This document shows, piece by piece, positions 576 through 10,940 of a stretch of DNA of 23,432 bases (positions are counted from its first letter, which is position 1; the number at the start of each line of letters is the position of its first letter). The DNA is from a virus: the UHGV virus genome UHGV-0174115, one strand, 5' to 3'. Below the pieces are notes generated by a model. That model was not told the origin of the DNA and ran no database searches. It saw only the letters and a program-made list of their open reading frames with translations. The translations under genes and the position numbers were made by a program.

Positions 576-2432
576 ATGTCAGATGCTTACGTTCACGATA
601 TTGAAAACTATCCTAATGTTTTTCTGTTCGGTGCTATTCATGCGTTAACTGAAACACCTTATATTTTTGAGATTTCACATCGTCGCGATGATCGTCAGGC
701 TTTTTACCTGTTCACGGAATATTTGCGTGAACATCGTGCTGAAGAAGTTGGTTATAACAATCTGGGTTACGACTATCCTGTTCAGCATTCTATTTTGAAC
801 AACATCATGTATATCACCAACGCAGACATTTATAAAAAAGGTGATTCGATAATTAACGCTGGTGATGAAAATCGTTTTGCTCATATGGTGTGGGAAAAAG
901 ACTGGATAGTTCCCCAACTTGATTTGTATAAAATTCATCATTTCGACAATCAGGCAAAACGAACAAGTCTGAAAACACTTGAATTCAATATGAGAATGGA
1001 AAACATTGAAGACCTCCCATTTACGCCAGGGACTTACTTAACCAATTCTCAAATTGATACGCTTCGTCAATATCTGATACACGATTTAAAAGCGACTTTG
1101 ATATTTTATAAACACAGTAAAAAACTGATCGATTTTCGTCGTGAACTTTCTGCTAAATACGGTCGTAATTTCATGAACCATAACGACACGAAAATTGGTA
1201 AAGATTATTTCATTATGGAACTTGAAAAATCAGGTATTCAATGTTTCGAACCGGGTAGCAGAAAACCACGACAGACGCACAGACCATCAATCGCATTAAA
1301 CAGCGTGATTTTCCCTTATGTCCGTTTTGAACAGCCTGAATTTAATCGTGTTCTTAACTGGTTACGTCAACAGGTCATCACTGAAACAAAAGGCGTGTTT
1401 ACTGATTTAAGCGCTGACATTAACGGGTTCTCGTTTGATTTTGGTACGGGTGGTATCCACGGGTCTATTGAATCTCAAACTATCAGGTCCACTGAAAATT
1501 ATGTGATCATCGATCTGGACGTTGCCAGTTTTTACCCGAACCTTGCGATCAGTAATGAACTTTATCCGGCACATCTGGGTAAACAATTTTGCACCATTTA
1601 TAAAAATGTTTATGACATGCGTTCCAGTTACCCGAAAGGTACACCAGAAAATGCAATGTTAAAACTGGCGTTAAACGGTGTGTATGGTGACAGTAATAAC
1701 GTATACAGTCCATTCTACGATCCTGCTTATACAATGGCTATTACGATTAATGGACAGTTACTTTTGTGCATGTTGGCTGAAGAACTTCTGAAAATCTCTG
1801 GTTTGTCCATGATCCAGGCTAACACAGATGGTCTTACGGTTTACGTGCCACGAGTGTTTACCGGACAAGTAGAACAGGTTCGTCACGCGTGGGAAAAATT
1901 AACCAGACTCCAGCTTGAAGAAGCGATTTATGACGTGATGTTTATCCGCGATGTAAATAACTACATCGCTGTTTATGAAGGTGGTAAGAAAGTTAAACGT
2001 AAAGGTGCTTATTGTCACAGTGTTGATCTGGGTTGGCATCAAAACCACAGTATGCAAGTTGTCGCAAAAGCGGCTGAAGCAGCACTGGTACACAATAAAG
2101 ACATTCGTGATTTTATAACATCACACGAAGACATTCACGATTTTATGTTGGTGACGAAAGTACCGCGTAACAGCAAATTACTATGGGGTGATAAACAAGT
2201 TCAGAATATCACTCGTTATTATGTCAGTACAGATGGTGCGCCGTTGACAAAAGTTATGCCACCGCTGGCAAAATCACTGAAACTGAATCCTGACGCGCCT
2301 GAACGCCGTATGTCAGTGTGCAAAGGTTGGTTGACCACTGAGTGCAACGACATGAAACGTTTTAACCGGACAACGCTCAATTATGATTTTTACATCAAAG
2401 AAGCTGAAAAACTCGTTGCACCACTTCGGTAA
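576..2432 (+). CDS. Family-B DNA polymerase-like protein (618 aa), compact, with 3'-5' exonuclease-like motifs
   Basis: PolB-like motifs read in order: DIE near N-terminus (Exo I-like), HFDN (Exo II-like), YLIHD (Exo III YxxxD), DLDVASFYPN (motif A, DxxSLYP), KLALNGVYG (motif B, Kx3NSxYG), NTDG (motif C position, normally DTDS), KRKGAY (KxY-like). Start ATG 576 with AGGG 7 nt upstream. Motif-level only. Confidence 0.6.
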   Translation: MSDAYVHDIENYPNVFLFGAIHALTETPYIFEISHRRDDRQAFYLFTEYLREHRAEEVGYNNLGYDYPVQHSILNNIMYITNADIYKKGDSIINAGDENRFAHMVWEKDWIVPQLDLYKIHHFDNQAKRTSLKTLEFNMRMENIEDLPFTPGTYLTNSQIDTLRQYLIHDLKATLIFYKHSKKLIDFRRELSAKYGRNFMNHNDTKIGKDYFIMELEKSGIQCFEPGSRKPRQTHRPSIALNSVIFPYVRFEQPEFNRVLNWLRQQVITETKGVFTDLSADINGFSFDFGTGGIHGSIESQTIRSTENYVIIDLDVASFYPNLAISNELYPAHLGKQFCTIYKNVYDMRSSYPKGTPENAMLKLALNGVYGDSNNVYSPFYDPAYTMAITINGQLLLCMLAEELLKISGLSMIQANTDGLTVYVPRVFTGQVEQVRHAWEKLTRLQLEEAIYDVMFIRDVNNYIAVYEGGKKVKRKGAYCHSVDLGWHQNHSMQVVAKAAEAALVHNKDIRDFITSHEDIHDFMLVTKVPRNSKLLWGDKQVQNITRYYVSTDGAPLTKVMPPLAKSLKLNPDAPERRMSVCKGWLTTECNDMKRFNRTTLNYDFYIKEAEKLVAPLR

Positions 2433-2471
2433 ACCGTATAGAATTATTTAAAACTTATTGAGGCGATAACA

Positions 2472-3008
2472 ATGCATACTTCACACAAATTCGTAGCTGG
2501 TTCACCGATTGGTGTCTTTACTCCCGGTAAAATTTATAACCGTGTTGACGGGTTCACCCGTGACGGTCGTTCCCGTGGTTTTTATATTGATGACCGTGGT
2601 GAATTTCGTTTAACAGACGACGACATGTTCGAACCTGCAGAACAGGTCCAACTGCGTTTACCACAGATGCCAATGTTCCCGGCCCGTCAGGAACGTCTTA
2701 AACTGGCTGCACGCTGGGGAACGTCTGAAATCAGTATCAGTAACTGGTACAAAGTTGATGACCTGATGAAACCGTGGCGCATCAGTGACGCTATTTGTGG
2801 CACTCGTGTTCTTACAGAACCTAATACAACGACATTTAAACCTGGTGAACTGGCTGAACTGGCTAACTCCCGTGGTTATCTGCTGTCTGAATTATCCGTT
2901 CGTTGGGGATGGCATTACGGATGTGAAACTTTACACACTATCAGCACGGATCCGCGCCGTGTTGCGCTTATCTGGGATATGTTAGAAGGAATGAATCGTC
3001 ATGACTGA
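2472..3008 (+). CDS. Hypothetical protein (178 aa)
   Basis: ATG 2472 with GAGG 9 nt upstream; long ORF with no shadow competitor of similar length; no recognisable motif. Confidence 0.55.
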   Translation: MHTSHKFVAGSPIGVFTPGKIYNRVDGFTRDGRSRGFYIDDRGEFRLTDDDMFEPAEQVQLRLPQMPMFPARQERLKLAARWGTSEISISNWYKVDDLMKPWRISDAICGTRVLTEPNTTTFKPGELAELANSRGYLLSELSVRWGWHYGCETLHTISTDPRRVALIWDMLEGMNRHD

Positions 3009-3213
3009 TTACAGTGTTTTAAGTGATATTTCAATCAACGCAATGGTTAGTCGTAAATTGTACGGTGAACCATCACATGAACATCGTCTGGAACTGGTGA
3101 ATCAAGTAGTCGATTATTGTAATAAACCAGACAATGCAATGCCGATTATTATTGAAAATAAAATTAGCATTGCGTTCGACACTAATGAAAACGAATGGTT
3201 GGGATATGATTAA
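3001..3213 (+). CDS. Hypothetical small protein (70 aa)
   Basis: ATG 3001 overlaps the upstream stop (ATGACTGA); AAGGA 9 nt upstream. Confidence 0.45.
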   Translation: MTDYSVLSDISINAMVSRKLYGEPSHEHRLELVNQVVDYCNKPDNAMPIIIENKISIAFDTNENEWLGYD

Positions 3214-3293
3214 CGAACCTACAATTTATTGTTCTCACGCTAATCCACTCCGTGCCGCAATGATTGTGTTCTTACAGATGCAGGAAAACAACC

Positions 3294-3647
3294 ATGATTA
3301 AACTCTGTTACATTGCCGGGCCTTATCGCGCTGATTGTGCGCTTAAAACATCCCGTAACGTGTCGCGCGCTGAACAGGCAGGTAAACGACTTGCTTTACA
3401 ACGTCCGGGGTGGTTCCCGGTTATCCCTCACAAGAACACCGAATTGTGGGACTTTGACGGCGGTTTACGCAATATACAACCTGAATACTACCTGTCAGGC
3501 ACATTAGAAGTTATGCGCCGCTGTGACGCTGTTCTGGTGCTTCCTGATTATCGTCGTTCATCTGGTACGCTAGCAGAAATTGCAGAAGCTGAACGTCTGG
3601 GTATTCCTGTGTATTACAGCGTGGAGAGCGTACCGGAACATGGCTAA
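3294..3647 (+). CDS. DUF4406-like protein (nucleoside 2-deoxyribosyltransferase-like fold), 117 aa
   Basis: MIKLCYIAGPY... N-terminus and CDAVLVLPDYRRSSGTLAEIAEAERLGIPV C-terminal motif as recalled for the DUF4406/NDT-like family; ATG 3294 with AGGA 8 nt upstream (track start 3264 is TTG). Confidence 0.55.
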   Translation: MIKLCYIAGPYRADCALKTSRNVSRAEQAGKRLALQRPGWFPVIPHKNTELWDFDGGLRNIQPEYYLSGTLEVMRRCDAVLVLPDYRRSSGTLAEIAEAERLGIPVYYSVESVPEHG

Positions 3648-4161
3648 AGACAACTGGGAAACACCGTGGGATTTTATTGATAATGTTTCTCGTGAATTCC
3701 CGCTTGTTCTTGATGTGTGTACCGATGGTTCTAACGCTAAATGTTCGTTGTTTATCACTGATAGTCTGAATAAAGACTGGCATTCGATTGTTCAAAGTAA
3801 TGGTGGTGGGTTCGTCTGGTGTAACCCACCGTACAGCGATCCGTCCCCCTGGGTTAATAAAATAATAACCACTGTTTATCAGGGAACTGGTTCGTTATTA
3901 CTTGTGAACGCTATGACGTCTGCAGACTGGTTTCATAAAGCACTGACACATTGTTCAGAACTATGGGTATTTAAAGGTCGTATAGCGTTTGTAGATCCTG
4001 ACACCGGGTTACCTGCAGGCGGAAATGACCGTTCACAGGTGATGTTTGTTTTCGACCCACATCATATCGGTGAATGTAAAACGAGATCTGTAAAAGTTTC
4101 CGACTATCAGAAAATAAAACGACAAGCGTACAGGAGTTATTGTTATGTCCACAATCGTTGA
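3640..4161 (+). CDS. dam: Phage-type DNA N6-adenine methyltransferase (Dam family)
   Basis: N-terminal WETPWDF and catalytic NPPY motif (GFVWCNPPYS) typical of phage Dam N6-adenine MTases; ATG 3640 overlaps upstream stop (ATGGCTAA). Confidence 0.85.
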   Translation: MAKDNWETPWDFIDNVSREFPLVLDVCTDGSNAKCSLFITDSLNKDWHSIVQSNGGGFVWCNPPYSDPSPWVNKIITTVYQGTGSLLLVNAMTSADWFHKALTHCSELWVFKGRIAFVDPDTGLPAGGNDRSQVMFVFDPHHIGECKTRSVKVSDYQKIKRQAYRSYCYVHNR

Positions 4162-4378
4162 ATTCAACCCTATGGATCCTGCTAAACGCCCAACAGGACG
4201 CTTTGCAAGATTGCCACAAACACGCGAACAGTTTTTTCCATTGTTGAACATGCGAGGGATTAAAACAGATCCACACGGGTTGATAGGAACATCCTTGTTC
4301 ATGTACCGAACTGAATATCCGGTTCCCGCATCGTGGATTGAGGTGTCGGTTGAAGATTTACTGAAGACTGTCTACTAA
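4145..4378 (+). CDS. Hypothetical small protein (77 aa)
   Basis: ATG 4145 with AGGAG 8 nt upstream; 3' end overlaps the convergent o-spanin 3' end. Confidence 0.4.
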   Translation: MSTIVEFNPMDPAKRPTGRFARLPQTREQFFPLLNMRGIKTDPHGLIGTSLFMYRTEYPVPASWIEVSVEDLLKTVY

Positions 4379-4606
4379 TGCGTTGTGAATAGTTGCACAT
4401 TTGAAATAAATATCTAACCACTGGTCATTAACATCTGTTGAATCATTTCCTGTCAGACCGTTCAGCCGTGGAAGGTTTTCGGTCTGACACTTCTGAACTA
4501 ATGCGGCCTGATAAACGGGCTTCTGCTTCGGTAACTCGTTCGTTGTACAAGCGTTGATATTCAGAAGTAAGACACTCGTTACGAAAAACAGTATTAGTCT
4601 TTTCAT
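4358..4606 (-). CDS. Outer-membrane spanin (o-spanin, Rz1-like lipoprotein)
   Basis: Signal peptide plus lipobox-like LLLNINAC; 82 aa; out of frame and overlapping the 3' part of the i-spanin gene (overlapped spanin architecture). Confidence 0.55.
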   Translation of the reverse strand: MKRLILFFVTSVLLLNINACTTNELPKQKPVYQAALVQKCQTENLPRLNGLTGNDSTDVNDQWLDIYFKCATIHNALVDSLQ

Positions 4607-4841
4607 GTCGTATTTCCACGATTTTAGTATTCTGCGACCAGTCAGCTAAACCACGAAGTACATCATCCGCTAGTTCCTGTTGTGCTTTTAACCGTTGTTG
4701 TTCCAGTTCAATAGCATCTAGTTGTTCCTGACGTTCTTCGTTTAACCGTGCTTTATATCCAGCGTGGTAACACGTATACGCACCTACGCTTAACACAAGA
4801 ACGGTCGCAACAACGGTGATTAGCACACTACGGGTTGTCAT
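4443..4841 (-). CDS. Inner-membrane spanin (i-spanin, Rz-like)
   Basis: N-terminal TMD (VLITVVATVLVLSVGAY) followed by charged coiled-coil-like region; directly downstream of the endolysin region; contains the overlapped o-spanin ORF. Confidence 0.6.
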   Translation of the reverse strand: MTTRSVLITVVATVLVLSVGAYTCYHAGYKARLNEERQEQLDAIELEQQRLKAQQELADDVLRGLADWSQNTKIVEIRHEKTNTVFRNECLTSEYQRLYNERVTEAEARLSGRISSEVSDRKPSTAERSDRK

Positions 4842-5068: not shown

Positions 5069-5458
5069 TCACGCGGGATATTTCGCATGTGGTAACTGGA
5101 AGTGTGGACCATCTTTCAGTGTTTTCCAGTCACCACCCCATTCAACAGGGATATTCAGTTCTTTTGCAGCCTGTTTAAATGCAGTGGCAATCTGTTCGTA
5201 ATATTTCCATTCCCATGATCCGGCAGATGTAGGATAAGCAAATACATCCACGGCGTGACCCGAAATATGGCGACTGTTCATCGTCTGACTTTTACCTGCA
5301 GCAACTAGTTGTCGTTGTCGTTCAACAGTTCGTAAACCTTCTGTGATACCGAAATCAACGGGTGATAACTGAAGTGCCCGACGCACGATTTTCACAAGAT
5401 CTGGGTTAACCCCTTTCAGATTGTTTTCGCTTCTCTGACTGAATTTAAAGTTACTCAT
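5069..5458 (-). CDS. Endolysin, peptidase M15 family (L-alanyl-D-glutamate peptidase type)
   Basis: Zn-ligand pattern SRHISGHAVDV ... DGPHFQL and overall similarity to T5-type M15 endolysins; ATGA overlap with upstream gene. Confidence 0.85.
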   Translation of the reverse strand: MSNFKFSQRSENNLKGVNPDLVKIVRRALQLSPVDFGITEGLRTVERQRQLVAAGKSQTMNSRHISGHAVDVFAYPTSAGSWEWKYYEQIATAFKQAAKELNIPVEWGGDWKTLKDGPHFQLPHAKYPA

Positions 5459-8411: not shown

Positions 8412-10940
8412 TTAATCATCCTGATAATAACGTGCATCATAATTGATGCACGTTAAACCCACTTGATAGTTATTATCCCTCCCTGATGGTTCCATAGTCT
8501 GAACCAACATCGCTAGCTTACTCCGTTGGTCATCTGCTCGGATCACAAATGCGGTTCGGTCACGTAACCAACCCGTATAAATTTCTTCAGACGGTTGATG
8601 ACTCAGGATTACTGTGAATTCATCGTTTCCAGCAATAATTGGAATATTTTCAATTGTACCCAGTCGCCCAGTAAGCGTAATTGAATAAACGTTACCTGGT
8701 GCAATTACCACCGGATCACTTAAAGTAAGTGTTAAGCCATTTACATCTTCAACGAAACCTTCCATTTGTTTCATTCGAGTGTTGTCGATCATGTCGACTC
8801 GCATACCGGGTGTAGCCTGTAACCCGATACTGTTGGTAATTGTTTCGTGGGTTATGCGTTGATAGCGAAGTTTGTTCATTTCACGATCAGCACGGATTGT
8901 AGCCAGATACTTAGACTGACACGCAACCAGGTCAATTTTGTTCAGGTTTATTTCTTCACCACGGGTGACATACAGATAAGACTTAACATCGTGGTCGAAG
9001 TATTTAACCTGAACGCCTGTATAATCTTTTGGTGGGGCGAATGTGCGGGTACGTTTATCACTGTCCGGGATCTTATATGCGTGACCAAACTGCATAGCAG
9101 ACTGATCCTGTGGTAATTCGGGCCAGAAGTATAGCACACTACCGACCTGATACGGGGTCACATTAACGGTACTGCAAATCGTCTGTAACCCTTCTTCGTA
9201 GGTGGTGCTATTGTTATCAAACGTGTAACCAGCCTGAATAGCACGAATATCACCAAAGTAATCTAACAATTGTTGTTGAACTGCGTACAGTGCTGTCTGG
9301 TCTATTGTACTGATGGTACGACGACCAAATACAGGATCGAGGTGCATGGACATAACAATGTCTGCGAAGTTCGAACTTGCGATACCATTATAAACACGGG
9401 TTGCTGTCATGTTTAATTTACGTTCTTTTTGTTTTAAAGCAGCATTGGTCGCTTTTGTTACAGCATGAATAAGCGTTACATCACCATAAGAGCGTGGTGA
9501 AATGTTACTGATTGCGTAGAGATCACGCCATTTAACATTGTCAACAACTGTTCCTTCGAAGTCTTTATCCGTATTCGATAAACGTCTTACCGAAACGTTT
9601 ACAGGTCCATTAAACGGGTTTTTCAGTATGACAGTCTTACCCACTGATTCCGTAAATCGTCCGGTAACCTGAAACGGATGATTTACACTCGCCTGAATAC
9701 CTGCTGGGTCTGAAAGAATCAACATGAAATCAATAGTAAATGGGTATACATCACCGTCCGTTTTATACACTCCGTTCTGCGCATACATGTTAATCATTAC
9801 TTTATCAGCATTTTCTAATAGATATGGTCCGACAATATACGGCGTGGTACTGTCAAGAGACGGTGAAAACTTGTATAAAACACTTCCACTTTCTTCGGTA
9901 GTTTCAAGTTCCCAGTAACCATCATTTCGCAAATAAGCCTGTGTATATGCAGCCTGGCCATTTTCAGACAGAATATCCCAACCATCACGACCATTAGTAT
10001 CAATGATTAACGTATTCTCACCTGCATAAATAACATCATATTCACCGGACAGGTCATTACGTACATACGTGTTTAACGGTAACGTATTAGGTGTAAAACT
10101 GTAAAATTGTGATAAACGAATTTTACCACCGATTGGTGCACGTTCTGACCAGTCAATCGTAGTGTTATCATCGCTGGAAATCGTAGTATCAATTTCACCA
10201 GTGCTGTAAATTTTAAAACTCGCTTTGCTGATATCAGCATAGTTTGGTGGCTTGACTTCAGATCCGTCTGCTTCGTTCGATGACTTAGCAACCATGATCG
10301 GAAAAGTGTTAATATCAATTGCACCACCGATATTCATGTACGGCGAACCATAACCGGGCGCATTACCTTTTTTATAAAAGTCTAATTTTTCACCACTGAT
10401 ATTTATAGCAGGTGTAATACCGTCACGAACATCTTCGACTTCGTATTCACCAACACCCAGACACAGAAACTGAACTTCATATTCTGTTCGGTCAATGAAG
10501 ATTCGGTAGTCCATTAACAGATCGGGATATGCCAGTACACGACCACGGATATCAGAAATACGTTCACCCGGTCGTGAAGCGTTGGTACGCCCCTGAAGCG
10601 CGTTGTTAGATGATGCTGAACGTGAGTTCTTAAGATTAGCCGACGCACTGGTATTCGGCATGAACAATTTTAAAATGGGGTTTAAAATTGTGCTAATAAC
10701 TTTCGTTATTGCACTAACCACCCCACCTTTTGGTAATTCATAAATGTGATAAACAGCATCAGGATCAGTTAATACGCTGGGGTCAGTGACCCATTTCTGG
10801 GTAATGTTTTCGTCGTTTTTATAAATCAGTAACCCACGCGGACGAACTGTACCCACGGGCCAGCGTTTCAGCATCCATTCACCAAAGTCAACGTTATCCG
10901 CATGTTCAACAGGATTAGTGTGATAAATGACTTTAGACAC
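8412..10940 (-). CDS. Large tail-tip / central fibre (host-specificity, J-like by position) protein, 842 aa
   Basis: Last and largest gene of the tail-tip module downstream of tape measure and small tip proteins; GTG start 10940 with GGAG 9 nt upstream. No specific motif recognised. Confidence 0.5.
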   Translation of the reverse strand: MSKVIYHTNPVEHADNVDFGEWMLKRWPVGTVRPRGLLIYKNDENITQKWVTDPSVLTDPDAVYHIYELPKGGVVSAITKVISTILNPILKLFMPNTSASANLKNSRSASSNNALQGRTNASRPGERISDIRGRVLAYPDLLMDYRIFIDRTEYEVQFLCLGVGEYEVEDVRDGITPAINISGEKLDFYKKGNAPGYGSPYMNIGGAIDINTFPIMVAKSSNEADGSEVKPPNYADISKASFKIYSTGEIDTTISSDDNTTIDWSERAPIGGKIRLSQFYSFTPNTLPLNTYVRNDLSGEYDVIYAGENTLIIDTNGRDGWDILSENGQAAYTQAYLRNDGYWELETTEESGSVLYKFSPSLDSTTPYIVGPYLLENADKVMINMYAQNGVYKTDGDVYPFTIDFMLILSDPAGIQASVNHPFQVTGRFTESVGKTVILKNPFNGPVNVSVRRLSNTDKDFEGTVVDNVKWRDLYAISNISPRSYGDVTLIHAVTKATNAALKQKERKLNMTATRVYNGIASSNFADIVMSMHLDPVFGRRTISTIDQTALYAVQQQLLDYFGDIRAIQAGYTFDNNSTTYEEGLQTICSTVNVTPYQVGSVLYFWPELPQDQSAMQFGHAYKIPDSDKRTRTFAPPKDYTGVQVKYFDHDVKSYLYVTRGEEINLNKIDLVACQSKYLATIRADREMNKLRYQRITHETITNSIGLQATPGMRVDMIDNTRMKQMEGFVEDVNGLTLTLSDPVVIAPGNVYSITLTGRLGTIENIPIIAGNDEFTVILSHQPSEEIYTGWLRDRTAFVIRADDQRSKLAMLVQTMEPSGRDNNYQVGLTCINYDARYYQDD
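8429..8454. terminator. 11-bp perfect-stem hairpin (aacgtgcatca-taat-tgatgcacgtt) at the junction of convergent tailspike and tail-tip genes
   Basis: Perfect inverted repeat read directly; lies within the last codons of the minus-strand gene, 18 nt past the plus-strand tailspike stop. No clean U-tract, so terminator role is tentative. Confidence 0.35.

Follow-up and report, generated by a model that had tools for sequence, protein, structure and literature searches.

The DNA investigated here, a stretch of 23,432 nucleotides from the virus genome UHGV-0174115 to which we refer as the window and whose first letter is position 1, carries on its plus strand a six-gene early/replication operon extending from position 576 to position 4378. 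It comprises, in this order, a DNA polymerase gene (576..2432; phrog_1252, 2.8e-214), a hypothetical gene, a NinX (DUF2591) gene, a gene encoding a protein related to nucleoside 2-deoxyribosyltransferases (NDTs), a DNA methyltransferase gene and a conserved 77-aa gene (phrog_25980; 4145..4378), which is the last gene of the operon and whose end at position 4378 is convergent with a lysis cassette on the minus strand. The synteny around the DNA polymerase gene, with which the operon begins, is identical in the phages PDP46, 9NA and Carvaje. The NinX gene, located upstream of the NDT-like gene, is split in the window into a 70-aa and a 55-aa open reading frame (3001..3301, plus strand). The NDT-like gene, hereafter gene A, encodes 117 amino acids between an ATG and a TAA codon (3294-3647, plus strand) and belongs to the DUF7768/DUF4406 family with NDT fold. 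Gene B, which likewise starts with ATG (3640-4161, plus strand), encodes a phage Dam protein of family PF05869 consisting of 173 amino acids.

[quoted passage not shown] The close match to PDP46, AVIO78A, PJ16 and Bas82 identifies the window, as judged by its nucleotide sequence, as belonging to a 9NA-like E. coli siphovirus. At the protein level, the gene A product shares 100% identity with its AVIO78A orthologue and 98.3% with that of PDP46, while for gene B the identity to AVIO78A amounts to 98.3%. The operon, the gene order and the overlap described below are present in the published 9NA-like phages (AVIO78A, PDP46, PJ16, KarinMuster/Bas82, 9NA with gp62/gp61, and Sasha) as in the window. 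In the GenBank entries of PDP46 and PJ16 the two genes are named “2'-deoxynucleoside 5'-phosphate N-hydrolase 1” and “DNA N-6-adenine-methyltransferase”, and in AVIO78A the gene A orthologue is named “nucleoside 2-deoxyribosyltransferase”; the genome announcement of 9NA mentions neither gene. Since the pair is already annotated in near-identical published genomes, and since both genes belong to common phage families, it is a known and ordinary gene pair rather than a new system and, as it stands, of low interest.

Gene A and gene B share the eight nucleotides ATGGCTAA (3640-3647, plus strand), as can be read directly from the sequence, so that the ATG of gene B falls within the final codons of gene A and precedes the gene A stop codon by 5 nt. 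A GGAGAG motif located inside gene A (3624..3629, plus strand) precedes the start codon of gene B by 10 nt and presumably acts as a Shine-Dalgarno-like element, a putative function. This motif or the form GGGAG is kept in the 9NA-like relatives irrespective of the type of methyltransferase encoded downstream. Both start codons agree with the N-termini of homologues, as those of gene A open with MKL.YIAGPY and the Dam homologue of the outgroup contig L012 opens with MAKDNWETP, identical to gene B. Upstream TTG starts, at position 3264 for gene A and at position 3580 for gene B, are ruled out by these N-termini. With the start of gene B lying inside the end of gene A, and with this arrangement being conserved, the two genes constitute a translationally coupled pair, whose coupled expression is predicted.

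Overlaps of this kind occur at four of the five junctions of the operon, which consist, in order, of a 39-nt gap, three overlaps of 8 nt each (ATGACTGA, ATGATTAA and ATGGCTAA) and one overlap of 17 nt between gene B and the 77-aa gene. It is the stop codon of NinX that overlaps the start codon of gene A by 8 nt (ATGATTAA). The overlap between gene A and gene B is therefore not distinctive within the operon, though it is conserved in relatives. No promoter-like or terminator-like site stands out within the operon (576-4378), and co-expression of gene A and gene B is plausible. As it would be common to all six genes of the operon, however, the overlap is no specific sign of a joint function of these two.

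Profile searches place gene A above the Pfam thresholds of two families, namely PF24963 (DUF7768; 6.9e-9, 36.4 bits, cutoff 26) and PF14359 (DUF4406; 5.4e-7, 30.4 bits, cutoff 22), and match it to phrog_355, annotated as “nucleoside 2-deoxyribosyltransferase”, with 4.6e-26. Towards PF05014, the NDT family proper, it scores 17.7 bits, which is below the cutoff of 28.8, so that gene A is to be regarded as a relative within the superfamily and not as a member of PF05014. NCBIfam holds no model for gene A, nor for the 77-aa gene. Among ten longer gene A homologues or open reading frames, inspected for domain fusions, only DUF7768 was found, in addition to read-through from upstream (e.g. from an HNH gene). 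In the literature searched, mentions of DUF4406 exist; a functional study of it was not among them.

Because sequence searches against the PDB, performed both with the single protein and with a profile of 41 sequences, yielded sub-significant matches only (BcmB, E 0.22; 1t1j and TbNDT, E 0.2-0.3), a fold search was needed to assign the fold of gene A. The AlphaFold2 model of the protein has a pLDDT of 95.7 and a pTM of 0.89. Its best Foldseek matches in the PDB are NDTs (6evs with E 6.6e-5, 8pqr and 2a0k), the DUF1937 protein 1t1j, human and rat DNPH1, and MilB/BcmB, with TM values of 0.56-0.68 and probabilities of 0.99-1.00 for the NDT, DNPH1, MilB/BcmB and 1t1j matches. The model shows the flavodoxin-like alpha/beta fold of the NDTs. 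At low rank, behind the NDT and DNPH1 structures, the same search returns the TIR protein ThsB2 (8v6t) with a probability of 0.84.

In an alignment of 41 homologues, Y6, G9, N22, A26, P45, C77, V80, S89, G91, E95 and A99 are invariant, and H46, E72, D78 and R12 are nearly so. To relate these residues to characterised enzymes we used three independent low-scoring HMM alignments, with rat Rcl, BcmB and TbNDT, which agree with each other; the rat Rcl sequence agrees with 2khz, and the position of its catalytic aspartate is marked by the solved structures of the mutants D69N and D69A. Glu95, after strand 4, aligns with the nucleophilic Glu93 of Rcl as well as with the corresponding glutamates of BcmB and TbNDT. 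Tyr6, at the end of strand 1, coincides with the triad tyrosine in the “IYIAGP” segment of TbNDT, a residue which orients the glutamate and excludes ribonucleotides (PMC12884076). Ser89 aligns with Ser87 of Rcl and with the serine of BcmB at the 5'-phosphate position, which is occupied by aspartate in the nucleoside-specific TbNDT; a lack of Asp/Asn there is described as the mark of monophosphate substrates (PMC12884076). The Asp/Asn of the triad, in contrast, has no counterpart in gene A, in that these low-scoring alignments place Thr70 at the position of the catalytic Asp69 of Rcl, with the nearly invariant Glu72 following two residues later. The chemistry of gene A may therefore differ from that of DNPH1. 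From these residues we infer gene A to encode a putative N-glycosidase or transferase for 2'-deoxynucleoside 5'-monophosphates, in which the acid/base arrangement would be a variant one.

Gene A thus has the NDT fold in common with DNPH1/Rcl, MilB and BcmB, and also the N-terminal tyrosine, the 5'-phosphate serine and the glutamate nucleophile, the latter two within the motif S-x-G-T-x-x-E, although its sequence similarity to these proteins is below significance (E 0.03-0.2). It differs from Rcl by Thr70 at the position of Asp69 and by invariants of its own family (N22, P45, H46 and C77). DmtZ of Z-genome phages, which we compare by its description, is like gene A a small, phage-encoded, single-domain member of the NDT superfamily, in which uncharged residues likewise replace the Asp/Asn at the 5' position and whose substrate is a dNMP (PMC12884076). 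The enzyme hydrolyses dAMP and transfers the deoxyribose 5-phosphate to the Z base (PMC12884076). While dmtZ adjoins PurZ0 and DutZ in the dZ pathway, the gene A locus is without such genes.

Gene B exceeds the threshold of the Dam family PF05869 by far (1.3e-30, 106.8 bits, cutoff 28.1), matches phrog_111 with 3.6e-47 and falls just short of the TIGR01712 equivalog cutoff (91 bits against 97.05). The (D/N)PP(Y/F) motif is present as NPPY at residues 62-65 and is kept in the homologue of contig L012. T1 and HP1 Dam are phage Dam methyltransferases of PF05869/TIGR01712. As small orphan N6-adenine methyltransferases with NPPY motif, the Dam of Stx phages and chi_017 of phage Chi resemble gene B, though its identity to PF05869/TIGR01712 members outside the 9NA-like group is only 28-39%. 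A PDB sequence search with gene B revealed no relative with a solved structure. We regard gene B as an ordinary orphan methylase of the phage Dam family which is predicted to methylate adenine at N6. GATC occurs 82 times in the window compared to 106 expected occurrences and is not strongly depleted; as a clue to Dam specificity through avoidance of the site, this ratio of 0.77 is uninformative. With these results, several statements of the initial annotation are borne out, which had described two open reading frames at 3294-3647 and 3640-4161 overlapping by 8 nt, had assigned them to the DUF4406-like and phage Dam families, and had proposed that they are co-expressed.

The initial annotation had further speculated that the NDT-like gene and the Dam gene are partners, which should then co-occur in related genomes. 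We therefore inspected 17 9NA-like loci (the window, PDP46, AVIO78A, 9NA, SP069, Carvaje, Kpn BU9, VLCpiS10a, Proteus phage Isfahan and eight IMG/VR contigs). In all 17, the NDT-like gene is followed by an overlapping gene for a DNA methyltransferase, which comprises between 173 and 517 amino acids and belongs either to PF05869 or to PF01555. Co-occurrence thus holds for a methyltransferase as such. It does not hold for Dam, however, since the PF05869 enzyme (173-246 aa) is found in only four loci (the window, PDP46, AVIO78A and contig L012). Carvaje and the contigs L004 and L005 harbour a short N6/N4 enzyme of PF01555 (259 aa), and in the remaining 9NA-like loci the PF01555 enzyme is long (375-517 aa) and variable in its middle part. 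Where the window has a Dam of PF05869, the slot of 9NA, Sasha, SP069 and the Klebsiella and Proteus relatives contains a PF01555 N6/N4 methyltransferase.

All three types of methyltransferase share one start ATG inside the end of the NDT-like gene, as seen from the junctions ...cATGGcTAA, ...cATGGtTGA and ...cATGGtgatTAA, and the overlap in the relatives amounts to 8 or 11 nt, with 14 nt in Proteus phage Isfahan. At the opposite end, the window Dam and the unrelated long PF01555 enzymes of the 9NA type have the C-terminus ...YVHNR* in common, because the respective codons are at the same time the start region of the 77-aa gene (ATGTCCACAATCGTTGA). The 17-nt overlap with this gene marks where the exchangeable methylase segment is bounded on its 3' side. 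The shared ATG together with the shared 3' boundary identifies the methylase body, on comparison of these genomes, as an exchangeable cassette between conserved flanks, with the coupling retained each time. As the methylase family varies behind the same embedded ATG, what is conserved is a coupled methylase slot and not a partnership of NDT-like protein and Dam. In contig L012, which represents an outgroup, the NDT-like protein is 67% and Dam 69% identical to the proteins of the window. This parallel divergence of both genes argues against a recent acquisition of the Dam version and indicates vertical inheritance of the NDT-like and Dam genes within one branch. The turnover in the slot, including length variants of the size of target-recognition regions, would fit selection by host restriction systems.

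To cover viruses beyond the 9NA-like clade, IMG/VR was searched by a pattern scan based on the 41-sequence alignment, from which 288 loci were confirmed and 80 fetched; distant homologues were defined by an identity of at most 50%, and their neighbours were scanned slot by slot against Pfam. All counts given for these distant loci are small and uncorrected for relatedness. Directly downstream of the gene A homologue (slot +1), 6 of 57 genes encode DNA methyltransferases, three of them N6/N4, two C5 and one MT-A70 enzymes, with no Dam among them. The slots +2 and +3 contain 3 DNA methyltransferases in 120 genes, and the slots -1 and -2 contain 9 in 100, eight of which are C5 enzymes. Other neighbours at +1 are genes for dATP/dGTP diphosphohydrolase, dNMP kinase, UDG, RusA, RdgC and exonucleases as well as unknowns, so that the downstream neighbours in distant viruses are largely other replication or nucleotide-metabolism genes. 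According to local profile searches, about 18 of about 66 non-duplicate loci have a methylase no more than 4 kb away, in each case encoded on the strand of the gene A homologue. A strong enrichment of methyltransferases at +1 in distant viruses was considered and dismissed: with about 6 of about 22 nearby methylases the enrichment is modest as well as uncorrected for relatedness, which is why we do not count it in favour of a functional link.

Among cultured phages the gene A family comprises 214 records, which essentially fall into the 9NA-like group and the Chi-like Casjensviridae. In Chi, the NDT-like chi_006 and the Dam-family chi_017 (TIGR01712, 4.3e-40) belong to one operon, although about 5 kb lie between them. 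Conversely, PF05869 Dam is carried by 2,024 of 50,697 phage records, and in a spread sample of 40 such records an NDT-like annotation under the match is confined to the 9NA-like record. With Dam present in no more than 4 of the 17 loci of the 9NA-like group, and in none of the six distant cases with a methyltransferase at +1, and with about 5 kb separating the two genes in Chi-like phages, there is no obligate NDT-like/Dam pair as such. Methyltransferases of many classes are moderately common near members of the gene A family, which is consistent with a shared replication/nucleotide module; their frequency near distant homologues could also reflect a functional link and not only the shared module.

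Taking these results together, we consider it probable that the locus is a packed early operon of a 9NA-like phage in which gene A provides a nucleotide-pool enzyme, gene B an exchangeable Dam, and the overlap a case of operon compaction. Gene A and gene B are the fourth and fifth genes of this tightly packed early/replication unit. The single-domain NDT-superfamily enzyme encoded by gene A would most likely cleave or transfer the N-glycosidic bond of a 2'-deoxynucleoside 5'-monophosphate and, like DNPH1 or DmtZ, act on the nucleotide pool. Gene B, as an orphan N6-adenine methyltransferase of the Dam family, would methylate the phage DNA. In 9NA-like phages its slot always contains some DNA methyltransferase, and unrelated methylase families have replaced one another there through recombination in conserved flanks, given on the 5' side by the start ATG inside the last codons of gene A and on the 3' side by the start of the 77-aa gene. 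The 8-nt overlap would provide co-transcription and probably a termination-reinitiation coupling of the methylase to gene A, and it would reflect the compaction seen at nearly every junction of the operon rather than a shared biochemical pathway, the two functions presumably being independent of each other. What speaks against this explanation is the fact that in the 9NA-like clade the methyltransferase is never missing after gene A, and likewise the somewhat frequent occurrence of methyltransferases near distant homologues and the presence of Thr70 at the position of the catalytic aspartate.

The constant presence of a methyltransferase after gene A is also an argument for a functional partnership in methylation, in which gene A would remove a by-product of the methyltransferase, either m6dAMP or m5dCMP released from degraded methylated DNA, or S-adenosylhomocysteine, which it would cleave to relieve product inhibition. 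Such a role would explain why the coupling of gene A is retained to whichever methylase fills the slot, as in 17 of 17 9NA-like loci even across the exchange of families; it also agrees with the recurrence of N6/N4, C5 and MT-A70 methyltransferases beside distant homologues and with the presence of both genes in one operon of Chi-like phages. Furthermore, DNPH1 provides a precedent, as it sanitises the modified dNMP hmdUMP (PMC10603095). Nevertheless, we regard this role as unlikely. About 73% of the distant loci are without a methyltransferase within 4 kb and 51 of 57 without one at +1, the enrichment stems from few and possibly related lineages, and the overlaps found throughout the operon account for the coupling without any shared function. 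As to S-adenosylhomocysteine, a ribonucleoside thioether, the invariant Tyr6 and Ser89 suit a deoxyribonucleotide better. To extend such a role to the whole DUF7768/DUF4406 family, as an accessory enzyme of phage DNA methylation which, being an N-glycosidase of the dNMP type with a variant site (Thr-x-Glu for Asp-x-Asn), would be coupled to the methylase for by-product disposal, appears quite improbable to us.

A joint role of both genes could also be sought in counter-defence or in the modification of virion DNA. In the former case, gene A would be an N-glycosidase of the TIR/NDT fold that destroys a nucleotide signal of host immunity or an NAD-derived messenger, gene B would act in anti-restriction, and both would make up a small locus against host defences with which the early operon closes. 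The rapid turnover of the methylase slot with its length variants from 259 to 517 aa is indeed reminiscent of an arms-race locus, and the fold search returned ThsB2, albeit at low rank and outranked by the NDT and DNPH1 matches. Gene A itself, however, is 60-100% identical across phages of Salmonella, E. coli, Klebsiella and Proteus while the methylase varies, and therefore behaves as a core and not as an accessory gene. In addition, its neighbours in distant viruses are genes of replication and nucleotide metabolism, and Bas82 is reported to be no more robust to the tested immunity systems than other small siphoviruses (PMC11990801), so that a counter-defence pair seems very unlikely. In the latter case, gene A would produce a non-canonical deoxynucleotide by base exchange on which the methyltransferase acts further, resulting in modified virion DNA. 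Precedents exist in DmtZ, which yields dZMP (PMC12884076), and in the co-occurrence of an NDT with genes of the dZ pathway (bioRxiv 10.1101/2025.10.22.683976). Yet no PurZ, DatZ, 7-deazaguanine or other modification genes adjoin the pair, methylases of different families can take each other's place, and the BASEL authors found Bas82 to lack any recognisable locus for modification and to be highly sensitive to restriction-modification (PMC11990801), which together render base hypermodification extremely improbable. The exchange of methylase families, the few methyltransferases directly downstream in distant loci and the distance between the two genes in Chi-like phages leave unsupported the more specific, speculative suggestion of the initial annotation that the NDT-like protein and Dam cooperate in nucleotide-pool or base-modification chemistry. 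We thus retain the packed operon with an exchangeable methylase as the preferred reading.

The fixed coupled slot, in which unrelated methylases replace one another precisely to the nucleotide, illustrates cassette mosaicism neatly. DUF7768/DUF4406, for its part, is a widespread phage family of replication modules with a recognisable but altered NDT active site, for whose function Bas82 of the BASEL collection is a tractable system. The slot of the 9NA-like phages, finally, offers a convenient experimental site for the insertion or swapping of methylases.

Directly downstream of the gene encoding the NDT-like protein, 9NA-like phages harbour a methyltransferase slot which accommodates three non-orthologous types of enzyme, namely PF05869 Dam, a short PF01555 type and a long PF01555 type of 375-517 aa whose middle part is variable. 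The comparison comprised the Dam gene of the window (3640-4161), the slot genes of three relatives (L002, 4269-5450; L003, 5269-6048; L084, 6079-7632) and the Dam gene of the outgroup contig L012 (4344-5084). All three types of slot methyltransferase use one common start ATG, located within the upstream gene, and the final five codons of two of the three also belong to the start region of the gene that follows. A gene for a 77-aa protein (window 4145-4378; phrog_25980, 1.4e-53) is kept in nearly all 9NA-like phages examined, where it always follows the methylase slot; its product finds no match in Pfam or NCBIfam.

The lysis cassette of these phages is mosaic as well. A Peptidase_M15_4 endolysin of 129 aa, encoded on the minus strand of the window (5069-5458) and compared with positions 5722-6282 of the relative L001, is common to the window and AVIO78A/9NA. 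At the equivalent position PDP46 and Kpn BU9 have a gene of 561 nt whose annotation is either glycosyl hydrolase or endolysin, and the cassette of Carvaje contains a 468-nt lysozyme-like gene.

Upstream of the NDT-like/Dam gene pair, NinX (DUF2591, PF10765; window 3001-3301) is split into a 70-aa ORF (3001-3213) and a 55-aa ORF in a different frame (3134-3301), its middle segment being divergent in sequence and lacking about 41 nt of the length seen in the relatives. NinX is unbroken in PDP46 (342 nt), AVIO78A (348 nt) and 9NA; the split form could be a pseudogene or a recombinant variant, or could result from an error in sequencing.

Salmonella phage Chi (NC_021315.1) resembles the 9NA-like phages in that its NDT-like gene, chi_006, is placed beside lysis genes, at the end of its operon. 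It shares 4 nt with chi_007 (both within 3423-4780, minus strand), which is annotated as PAPS reductase and yields only weak NCBIfam matches. The RefSeq product name of chi_017 (8661-9347, minus strand), "phosphoadenosine phosphosulfate reductase", looks like a mis-annotation, given that TIGR01712, the model for phage N6-adenine methyltransferases, hits this protein at 4.3e-40. The name probably originates from PHROG families with PAPS-reductase/Dam fusions, as phrog_33262 also matched the window Dam in the PHROG comparison.

Across the whole window (23.4 kb) the 4-base palindromes scarcest relative to expectation are AGCT (29 observed versus 75.5 expected), CTAG (11 versus 22) and GGCC (21 versus 34), which may reflect restriction-site avoidance.
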